A stretch of DNA of 57,445 bases, taken from positions 1 through 57,445 of the IMG/VR virus record IMGVR_UViG_3300033182_001174. The stretch is one strand, 5' to 3'. The translations under genes were made by a program, and so were the position numbers. Of this stretch, positions 3,397 through 33,748 are shown in pieces. Under the pieces are notes generated by a model that saw nothing but the letters and a program-made list of their open reading frames with translations, did no database searches and was not told the DNA's origin. The DNA comes from a virus (taxonomy: Duplodnaviria > Caudoviricetes). Every line of letters starts with the position of its first letter. Position 1 is the stretch's first letter.

Positions 3397-3632
3397 AACA
3401 AGCACTAGTTTACGGCAATGGTGGACAAGAATCTGAACGAGCAGTCATGGTTCTTGAAGCATGTGGTCAAGATGTAAGACAATTCTTATTGGGTATTGAT
3501 TTCACCCATAAACAATTCAAAGCAGAATTTGGAGAAGAAGCAGAGTATCCACAAGTTGCTATTGGATTAGATCATCGTGGAACATTAAAAGAAACACTCA
3601 AGTACATGAGTGATAAAGGTATGTTTTTGTAA
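3393..3632 (+). CDS. Glutaredoxin-like protein lacking CxxC
   Basis: FKAEFG..AEYPQV resembles the thioredoxin-fold TFPQV region; active-site cysteines absent. Confidence 0.6.
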   Translation: MKQALVYGNGGQESERAVMVLEACGQDVRQFLLGIDFTHKQFKAEFGEEAEYPQVAIGLDHRGTLKETLKYMSDKGMFL

Positions 3633-3634
3633 AC

Positions 3635-3650
3635 TGTAACACAAGTTACA
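3635..3650. promoter_or_regulatory. NtcA-binding site
   Basis: TGTAACACAAGTTACA matches TGTA-N8-TACA, the cyanobacterial NtcA consensus. Confidence 0.8.
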
Positions 3651-3657
3651 AAAAAAC

Positions 3658-3686
3658 TTGACTATATAGTTCAACGGGTTTATAAT
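3658..3686 (+). promoter_or_regulatory. Sigma70-type promoter
   Basis: TTGACT-17 bp-TATAAT. Confidence 0.9.
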
Positions 3687-3705
3687 ACCCATACGTTCAT
3701 CCAAC

Positions 3706-3903
3706 ATGTTAACACTACTGTTGGCACTGACCTTAGCCCATCACGATCCGTCACCTTACGGGTGGCATATGTCTTGTGAAAGGTTCCTACAAAGAAAAAT
3801 TGAGATTCAGTTAGATGCAAACTTGGACTTTAGGTCTAAGGGAAATCTGATACTTTATCTCAAATCTAAAGTAGACGGTAAGTGTGAATCTGTGTTAACA
3901 TAG
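3706..3903 (+). CDS. Small protein with signal-peptide-like N-terminus, embedded in aptamer 1
   Basis: 65-aa ORF, MLTLLLALTLA N-terminus, Cys24 and Cys60. Confidence 0.65.
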   Translation: MLTLLLALTLAHHDPSPYGWHMSCERFLQRKIEIQLDANLDFRSKGNLILYLKSKVDGKCESVLT

Positions 3904-3938
3904 GACGCAAGTAAGTCGCGGAACGGAGCGTTCATCCC

Positions 3939-4100
3939 ATGTTTGATTTATTACTCTACTCTTCTATGCACTGCACTGATGCTGTTGATCTTATCAACCG
4001 TATTGATGCAAATAAAAGTGTAGATGTAATCATCAGGACTGAGGTGATTGAGACCGTAAAGGAAGCAACACCTGAGTGCAACTGGGACGCAAACGACTGA
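3939..4100 (+). CDS. Small protein embedded in aptamer 2
   Basis: 53-aa ORF MFDLLLYSSMHCTDA...PECNWDAND (not in the ORF track); Cys12 and Cys47. Confidence 0.6.
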   Translation: MFDLLLYSSMHCTDAVDLINRIDANKSVDVIIRTEVIETVKEATPECNWDAND

Positions 4101-4174
4101 AGGAACGGGAAAAAACGGATCCTGCGAAAGCAGAGAAGGTTCAATTTTCACCCTAGTATTTCAGGAGTAAACCA

Positions 4175-4339
4175 ATGAACACCTTAACACTCATCAAGAA
4201 GCAAATCGACAAGGCAGCAGCACTGCACGACGCACAAATCCTCGTTACCAAGTATCGTGGAGTTGATTGTAAAGTGCATGAGGCACCTGAGGAAACTCAC
4301 GGCACCTTCTGCTATCGTGGTCGCACTTACACCAAGTGA
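4175..4339 (+). CDS. DUF4278-type (YRG-motif) downstream peptide
   Basis: 54 aa MNTLTLIKKQ...KYRGV...CYRGRTYTK; AGGAG RBS; twin YRG motifs. Confidence 0.85.
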   Translation: MNTLTLIKKQIDKAAALHDAQILVTKYRGVDCKVHEAPEETHGTFCYRGRTYTK

Positions 4340-4368
4340 TTGCAAAACCAATTGAATAGTGTTAGAAT
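4340..4368 (+). promoter_or_regulatory. Sigma70-type promoter overlapping terminator
   Basis: TTGCAA-17 bp-TAGAAT. Confidence 0.5.
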
Positions 4369-4392
4369 GGGAGGGTTACCTCCCATTTTTTT
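4366..4392 (+). terminator. Rho-independent terminator
   Basis: ATGGGAGG-GTTA-CCTCCCAT followed by a T-tract. Confidence 0.85.
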
Positions 4393-4641
4393 ATGGAAAG
4401 AGATAAACTTAAACTGATAGTAAGGAATCTAAAACTGTTGGTTGAAGCTCTTGAATCAGAAGTATATTCAGATCCTGGTGCTTACACTGACAAACGGGAG
4501 AACTTTGATGATCCCATCCCTTACCCTGTAGCAGATTACGACGAAGTATTTAATGACGATGATGACTATGACGATAGTGCGACTAATCGTATAAATAATT
4601 CATACAGATTAGTCAACGACGATGATGGAGATGGATTATAG
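4393..4641 (+). CDS. Conserved cyanophage hypothetical protein (acidic C-terminus)
   Basis: KLKLIVRNLKLLVEALESEVYSD motif. Confidence 0.75.
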   Translation: MERDKLKLIVRNLKLLVEALESEVYSDPGAYTDKRENFDDPIPYPVADYDEVFNDDDDYDDSATNRINNSYRLVNDDDGDGL

Positions 4642-5125
4642 GATACTTGATGAGTATCCTCAATATAAAATATATCCAGATGGAAAAGTTTATTCAATTA
4701 AACTTAAAAAATATATTAACGGGCATAAAAATAAAAGAGGATACTATGCTTTTACCTTGTATGATTTAAAAGGAAAAAGAAAGCATAAGGGACTACATCA
4801 ACTTCTTGCTATGGCATTTATTCCAAATCCAAAGGGATATGAAATAGTCAGGCATCTTGATGATGACAAAGATAATAATTCTTTGTCTAATCTAAAATGG
4901 GGAACAATAAAAGAAAATATTGAAGATGCCATTAGGAATAATGTTTTTAAAATGCCAGACAACTCCAGAAAGTGGTTGGTTAAATCTCCTAGTGGTGATA
5001 TAATAGAAGTTGAAAACCTTTCAAAATTTTGTTCTGAAAATAATCTATCAAAACAAAATTTACATAAAACATACAAGGGTAATAGAAATCATCATAAAGA
5101 TTATAAATTGTTGAAAATGTTATGA
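4622..5125 (+). mobile_element. Free-standing HNH homing endonuclease
   Basis: HQLLAMAFIPNP..VRHLDDDKDNNSLSNLKW HNH motif; AT-rich; sits immediately upstream of thyX. Confidence 0.88.
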
Positions 5126-33270: not shown

Positions 33271-33355
33271 GGGAGTGTGGCGGAATCGGTAGACGCACCA
33301 GACTTAAAATCTGTTGATTGTAAAGATCGTGGGGGTTCAAATCCCCCCACTCCCA
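33271..33355 (+). tRNA. tRNA-Leu(UAA)
   Basis: GGGAGTG/CACTCCC acceptor stem, anticodon TAA (33305-33307), long variable arm, GGTTCAAATCC T-arm. Confidence 0.95.
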
Positions 33356-33674: not shown

Positions 33675-33748
33675 GCCAACTTAGCTCAGCTGGATAGAGC
33701 AGGGTTTTTGTAAAGCTCAGGTCATCGGTTCAAGTCCGATAGTTGGCT
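33675..33748 (+). tRNA. tRNA-Thr(UGU)
   Basis: GCCAACT/AGTTGGC acceptor stem, anticodon loop TT-TGT-AA, GGTTCAAGTCC T-arm. Confidence 0.95.

Follow-up and report, generated by a model that had tools for sequence, protein, structure and literature searches.

Which RNA fold accounts for a pair of perfectly complementary 5-mers that lie about 180 nt apart in a cyanophage mRNA and are flanked by the E-loop signature of glutamine riboswitches? The locus belongs to a T4-like cyanomyovirus fragment, the IMG/VR virus contig IMGVR_UViG_3300033182_001174, which was analyzed as one window of 57,445 nt. A blastn search with positions 3400-4700 found 374 phage records, nearly all from Synechococcus or Prochlorococcus phages. 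A sequence-only reading had assigned the two 5-mers to two glutamine aptamers in linear order, interlocked by the shared helix as a pseudoknot. From this it inferred an obligate two-site and possibly cooperative sensor. Our analysis confirmed the observation itself, since both strands are present and pair. The interpretation was supported only in part: two complete glutamine-aptamer cores do share this helix, which spans ORF2, but the covariation data favor a nested instead of an interlocked arrangement.

The locus and its conserved elements

The conserved blocks read CGUUCAUCC at 3694, GGACGCAAGUAAGUCGCGGAACG-GAG-CGUUCAUCCC at 3903-3938 and UGGGACGCAAACGACUGAAGGAACGGG at 4083-4110. AGUA and GAA face each other at the same end of the AGUCG/CGACU duplex. 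By chance, a given 5-mer is inferred to meet its complement in a fixed register about 1 time in 1024. Each of the two cores has CGUUCA, a GACGCA linking strand and GGAACGG. The stretch from about 3693 to 4392 is best explained as one short transcription unit with three small ORFs.

Table 1. Features of the locus and of further sites in the window
Position	Strand	Feature	Remarks
3658-3686	+	Sigma-70-type promoter TTGACT-17-TATAAT	11 of 12 consensus matches; transcript should start about 7 nt downstream, just before the first CGUUC; a -10 box lies at the same distance in S-SM2, Syn9 and S-SCSM1
3694-3700	+	Outer aptamer, P1 5' strand CGUUC (3694-98), then A and U	Invariant in 82 of 82 aligned loci; matches the Rfam glutamine consensus
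3701-3904	+	Outer P2a, long-range stem: C3701-G3904, C3702-G3903, and A3706-C3715 with G3892-U3901	Encloses ORF1 (3706-3903, 65 aa, phrog_6471); start and stop codons both in the stem
3904-3913	+	Outer linking strand GACGCA (linchpin base C3908) and E-loop 5' strand AGUA (3910-13)	AAGUA begins at 3909
3914-3918	+	Shared P3, 5' strand AGUCG	Covaries with 4094-4098
3920-3935	+	Inner aptamer, P1' hairpin: GGAACG (3920-25), loop G3926-A-G, CGUUC (3929-33), then A and U	G3926 is the inner linchpin base and covaries with 4090; loop always 3 nt or longer across loci
3936-4086	+	Inner P2b: CCCA (3936-39) with UGGG (4083-86)	Encloses ORF2 (3939-4100, 53 aa, phrog_504); the A of the AUG is in the stem
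4086-4093	+	Inner linking strand GACGCA (4086-91, linchpin base C4090), then AA
4094-4101	+	Shared P3, 3' strand CGACU (4094-98), and E-loop 3' strand GAA (4099-4101)	ORF2 stop codon UGA is 4098-4100
4102-4108	+	Outer P1 3' strand GGAACG (pairing bases 4103-07) and outer linchpin base G4108
4108-4153	+	P4 domain directly after P1: GGG/CCC and AAAA/UUUU enclosing an inserted hairpin	From the minimum-free-energy fold
4117-4142	+	Inserted hairpin in P4, GGAUC-CUGC-GAAA-GCAG-AGAA-GGUUC	GAAA loop and 4-nt bulge
4159-4167	+	UUUCAG (4159-64), can pair with CUGAAG (4097-4102)	Overlaps the Shine-Dalgarno site AGGAG (4163-67)
4175-4339	+	ORF3, 54 aa, DUF4278-like (IF17-like), phrog_545	Presumed regulated gene
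4340-4368		Second promoter-like site TTGCAA-17-TAGAAT	9 of 12 matches, with TG; just before the terminator hairpin and the next ORF at 4393
4369-4392	+	Likely intrinsic terminator GGGAGG-GUUA-CCUCCC, then A and seven U	Read from the sequence; not listed by a consensus scan
33271-33355		tRNA gene	62.1 bits; long variable arm
33675-33748		tRNA gene	59.9 bits

Searches of the window with Rfam models did not detect a glutamine riboswitch, neither at the gathering score nor at E values up to 10. A direct search with the glutamine model RF01739 gave nothing, and the glutamine-II model RF01704 gave a 9-nt fragment at 4.7 bits. This is expected from the 150-200 nt insertions, although membership by score is thus not reached. 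In phage S-SM2, where ORF1 is replaced by a short hairpin, the homologous 50 nt scored 29.8 bits against Glutamine-II (cut-off 33) and 28.5 bits against Glutamine (cut-off 35), and the consensus matches the blocks of the window letter for letter in the conserved positions. A natural compact form, locus L263 of our collection of related loci, scored 36.8 bits, which is above the gathering score of 35. In this case positions 149-194 were read as a linear unit with a truncated P3. This is how ordinary annotation, and also the sequence-only reading, would see a tandem.

Covariation of the shared helix

Related loci were collected from IMG/VR with degenerate patterns that left the two 5-mers free, and then with patterns that demanded a change at one position. 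The latter also returned matches without a CGUUCA nearby. Of these, 27 inspected loci were located in unrelated phage sequence and were dropped as chance matches. A further scan gave 74 distinct matches, most of them in unrelated sequence, and only those with the full motif set were used.

The covariation analysis, proposed beforehand as a check, proved the P3 helix. Among 186 distinct loci holding both blocks, 183 keep all five pairs and three keep 4 of 5. The combinations were AGUCG/CGACU (120 loci), AGUCA/UGACU (31), AAUCG/CGAUU (10), GAUCG/CGAUU (7, with G.U), AGUCU/AGACU (4), AGUCG/CGGCU (3, with U.G), AGACU/AGUCU (3), AUUCG/CGAAU (3), AAUCU/AGAUU (1), and AGUCA/UGGCU (1). Changes on both sides occurred at positions 2, 3, and 5, and G.U pairs at positions 1 and 3. 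In an 82-sequence MAFFT alignment, 100% of the P3 cells were paired. Three of the five pairs changed on both sides, one changed through G.U, and one never varied. For the whole structure, 0 of 500 shuffles reached the observed covariation score, and sliding the partner by 1-3 columns reduced pairing to 28-51%. The G.U pairs show that the pairing takes place in RNA of the + strand.

The P2 stems and the enclosed genes

The stem P2a covaries freely (CG, UA, AU, and GC pairs; CCCC/GGGG, CUCC/GGAG, CAGAG/CUCUG and others). In 73 of 124 loci it is a hairpin of 15-41 nt, and in 45 it is a long-range stem around ORF1. One locus is intermediate, and in 5 no upstream CGTTCA was found, four of these being at a contig end and one, L122, having none within the sequence inspected. 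Where ORF1 is present, its AUG pairs with a CAU just before the stop codon, which gives a 10-bp duplex in the window. The AUG lies inside the best duplex in 35 of 46 distinct loci. Two of 46 ORF1-type inserts from the first scan stop at a UAA beyond the P2a stem. In the compact-inner loci L193, L197, L222 and relatives, the upstream ORF, read by eye, seems to run through the linking strand and to stop at the UAA inside AAGUAA of the E-loop 5' strand. P2b shows compensatory variation as well (CG/UG/UA, 98.8% of cells paired), and in 23 of 186 loci a short hairpin replaces ORF2.

Both ORFs are genuine genes. Their lengths differ by multiples of three (162, 165, 168, 171, and 177 nt for ORF2) and third codon positions vary most. 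For ORF2, entropy decreased from position 3 to position 1 to position 2, and 1 of 94 sequences had an internal stop. Both match PHROG families of unknown function, and BLASTP found no similarity between the two. The conserved C-terminus WDAND of the phrog_504 proteins is encoded by the P2b, linking-strand, and P3 sequence of the aptamer. RNA structure therefore fixes a protein tail, or the reverse. It may be asked whether the conserved blocks are protein-coding or DNA-level signals, as they overlap the ends of ORF1 and ORF2. This is very unlikely, because the blocks persist in the loci lacking ORF1 or ORF2, the covariation including G.U pairs is specific to RNA of the + strand, and the blocks match the Rfam glutamine models. 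The compact forms already largely refute this explanation.

Nested or tandem arrangement of the two cores

There are two CGUUC strands and two GAACG strands, all invariant. Thus, covariation of P1 cannot distinguish between pairing of the 5' with the middle and the middle with the 3' strands (linear tandem units with P1a 3694-98/3921-25 and P1b 3929-33/4103-07, P3 being a pseudoknot) and pairing of the 5' with the 3' strand around a local middle hairpin. The crystal structure of glutamine-II (PMC6698751) contains a long-range linchpin pair, C19:G41, between the linking-strand base after ACG and the base following GAACG, and the P1 of glutamine-I is likewise ended by an equivalent pair. We used this pair to discriminate between the two arrangements.

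Across the 186 loci, the bases of the 5' linking strand, after the middle GGAACG, of the 3' linking strand, and after the 3' GGAACG read C,G,C,G in 158, C,G,A,G in 16, C,C,G,G in 11, and C,G,G,G in 1. Whenever the base after the middle GGAACG is C, the 3' linking strand has G (11 of 11), while the 5' linking strand stays C in 186 of 186 and its partner after the 3' GGAACG is G in 186 of 186. In these 11 loci the tandem model gives C.C and G.G at the linchpins, whereas the nested model gives two Watson-Crick pairs. The pair counts on the alignment agree, with 2 unpaired and 6 unpaired cells against 2 compensated cells. The 11 loci fall into at least three architecturally different groups (compact inner aptamer with ORF1, fully compact, and ORF2-bearing) and have near relatives carrying G/C, G/A, or the uncompensated G/G, so more than one event is likely. 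Independent geometry points in the same direction. AGUA and GAA flank the same end of P3, which by homology to glutamine-I places the 5' linking strand and the 3' GGAACG in one core.

The fold is therefore nested and free of pseudoknots apart from the linchpins. An outer, canonical glnA-type (glutamine-I) three-way junction has a P3 without a hairpin loop. The far end of P3 opens into a second three-way junction, which is a circularly permuted glutamine aptamer lacking the E-loop, with C and AA in its place. In compact loci such as L193 and L263 the whole inner aptamer comprises about 40 nt inside P3, showing the design without ORFs. We hold this assignment with good but not full confidence, since it rests on one covarying tertiary pair, and a 3-nt loop that also supplies the linchpin base may be sterically tight.

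The interlocked tandem model remains unlikely. In its favor, the linear order of motifs fits, Rfam reads the compact form and the S-SM2 homologue in this way, tandem glutamine riboswitches are known, and glutamine-II RNAs swap strands in crystals (PMC6698751). The free-energy fold of the whole window also prefers P1a, which could represent a ligand-free conformer. A local hairpin of CGC 3906-08 with GCG 3918-20 in the same fold was judged weak. The claim that class II builds the shared helix as a pseudoknot was not supported either: according to PMC6698751, the glutamine-II pseudoknot helix is the equivalent of glutamine-I P1, and P3 has no equivalent in class II.

It is also unlikely, though conceivable, that only the outer aptamer senses glutamine and that the inner domain is a structural cap for P3 or a relic. 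The missing E-loop, the tight P1' loop, and the 17 of 186 loci with A or G opposite G at the inner linchpin would fit this view, and the inner site may be weak or inactive in some phages. However, the ligand-contacting motifs of the inner core are invariant or nearly so in 82 of 82 aligned loci, and the compensatory change in 11 loci indicates selection on the binding-site geometry.

Predicted read-out and regulated gene

Free-energy folds of six compact variants and of the window predict a helix between CU(G/A)AAG, which comprises the end of P3, the E-loop 3' strand and the first G of GGAACG, and (Y)UU(C/U)AG at the ribosome site of ORF3. Of 180 loci with a recognizable ribosome site, 161 have 6 of 6 pairs, 18 have 5, and 1 has 3, while shifted registers give 2.2-4.4 pairs. 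The E-loop G/A position pairs as GC in 104, AU in 38, GU in 37, and GG in 1 locus, and never as A.C. The A-U cases may share ancestry, and the helix covers only 2 of the 5 Shine-Dalgarno bases. This helix and the aptamer fold exclude each other. Hence, glutamine-stabilized folding should expose the ribosome site and switch ORF3 on, in agreement with the ON behavior reported for cyanobacterial glutamine riboswitches and with the proposal that ligand binding melts a helix attached to P1 (PMC6212724).

ORF3 of the window scored 21.1 bits against DUF4278 (cut-off 25.3), and 5 of 7 homologous downstream genes passed the cut-off. DUF4278, the usual partner of glutamine riboswitches, marks IF17 and IF17-like glutamine synthetase inactivating factors (PMC6212724). 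The P4 domain is a simple GGGn/nCCC hairpin with compensatory variants in many other loci. The hairpin inserted here and in some relatives covaries in its top stem (UGC/GCA, AGC/GCU, UCC/GGA, UCG/CGA).

Both cores carry every nucleotide that contacts glutamine in the solved structures, so two ligand sites are expected. A 5-bp P3 closed by 40-170 nt would be stable only if the inner domain folds, and the outer site should therefore depend on the inner one, which predicts a cooperative or sequential response. We consider P3 and the P2 stems (by covariation), the nested assignment, the coding status of ORF1 and ORF2, and the DUF4278 affiliation of the ORF3 family to be established by our data, within the limits given above for P1, the linchpin, and the score of ORF3 itself. 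In contrast, ligand binding, two-site occupancy, cooperativity, the direction of the switch, and any coupling to translation of ORF1 and ORF2 are inferred from sequence alone, in the absence of binding or expression data for this element. One such inferred point is that ribosomes finishing ORF2, whose stop codon lies inside the competing strand, would also free the ORF3 ribosome site.

A more far-reaching and tentative possibility is that two protein-coding genes are literally loops of a two-site, cooperative glutamine sensor. In this view, the start and stop codons of ORF1 and ORF2 would lie inside the P2 stems, with the ORF2 stop codon in the strand competing for the ORF3 ribosome site, and ribosome traffic and glutamine binding would jointly decide the fold. 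Together they would gate an IF17-like inhibitor of host glutamine synthetase during infection. This would be a nested, translation-coupled riboswitch logic that is not known to have been described for any class.

Distribution in phages

The 40-nt junction block (3902-3941) was found in 425 of 50,697 phage records, 420 of them at 80% coverage or more. By the first word of the organism name these were Synechococcus (346), Cyanophage (63), Prochlorococcus (10), and Marine (6). It also occurs in well over 100 uncultured viral contigs, of which the first scan alone yielded at least 120. In S-SM2, Syn9, and Syn19 the element sits in a variable island, the annotated neighbors of which differ between phages and include glutaredoxin/thioredoxin, nrdB, thymidylate synthase, and talC.

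A scan of genome contigs returned at least 120 stretches, and most of the 120 obtained were chance hits. Six loci with the real architecture (L376, L402, L421, L445, L449, and L465) lie on contigs that look like binned phage DNA, and the only hits in cellular bins lie on contigs that look like phage. The exact junction signature was not found in the 300 other genomes searched of the same family as the genome designated G001. Contigs from four metatranscriptome runs cover the aptamer blocks and ORF3 and include compact variants that skip ORF2 or the P4 insert. As contigs can neither show transcript ends nor exclude DNA carry-over, and uncovered flanks are no evidence, this indicates presence in RNA libraries only.

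A survey from 2017 found only two glutamine aptamers in cyanophage genomes and concluded that phages rarely use riboswitches (PMC5473149), and glutamine riboswitches in T4-like cyanophages are mentioned in passing (PMC9602691, PMC9964418). Our data suggest that a common, putative phage riboswitch has been hidden from covariance-model searches by its nesting and by genes in its loops. It would link phage gene control to host nitrogen status through an IF17-like protein. Insertion of a circularly permuted aptamer into a stem of another offers a compact route to cooperative, digital sensing, and the compact core of about 125 nt is easy to test.

Comparison with known riboswitches

Our literature searches found no description of a nested or circularly permuted glutamine aptamer or of genes inside riboswitch loops, although they did not extend to supplementary data or to the original binding study (Ames and Breaker 2011), so that prior recognition of a shared P3 in tandem glnA RNAs cannot be excluded. 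Glutamine-I and glutamine-II riboswitches, their shared ligand site, and tandem arrangements are established. We regard the element as a variant of the glutamine riboswitch that is not a scored member of either Rfam family. The outer aptamer has every consensus element of the glutamine-I riboswitch (glnA RNA motif, RF01739) in canonical order, namely CGUUCA, P2, the GACGNA linking strand, AAGUA, P3, GAAGGAACG and the linchpin (PMC6698751), and the downstream gene belongs to the DUF4278-like group. P1 CGUUC/GAACG, P2 after CGUUCA(U), and the linking strand are present twice, the E-loop leading into P3 in the outer aptamer only. It differs from glutamine-I in that P3 leads into a second aptamer instead of a hairpin, P2 holds a 65-codon gene, and the linchpin is C:G, as in class II, rather than G:C.

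With the glutamine-II riboswitch (Downstream-peptide motif, RF01704) the element shares the ligand-site motifs, the C:G linchpin orientation, the absence of an E-loop in the inner aptamer, the marine picocyanobacterial setting, and the DUF4278 partner. In class II the GGAACG strand lies in the loop of a 3' hairpin next to the start codon and forms a pseudoknot with the 5' CGUUC. No such hairpin exists around either GGAACG of the window, the inner P1' being a simple hairpin in a domain closed by P3.

Tandem glutamine riboswitches (157 doublets and 4 triplets, PMC9481103) also place two glutamine aptamers on one leader, and a steeper dose response is proposed. They are described as separate units acting pseudo-cooperatively and are tabulated under multiple expression platforms, although some published doublets may in fact have the present fold. 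Here, the two cores share a helix, are nested, and have one predicted read-out. In the tandem glycine riboswitch, two homologous aptamers for one amino acid are physically coupled and have a single expression platform. The glycine aptamers lie side by side and touch through tertiary contacts, whereas in the element from this cyanophage one aptamer is inserted in a stem of the other and is circularly permuted.
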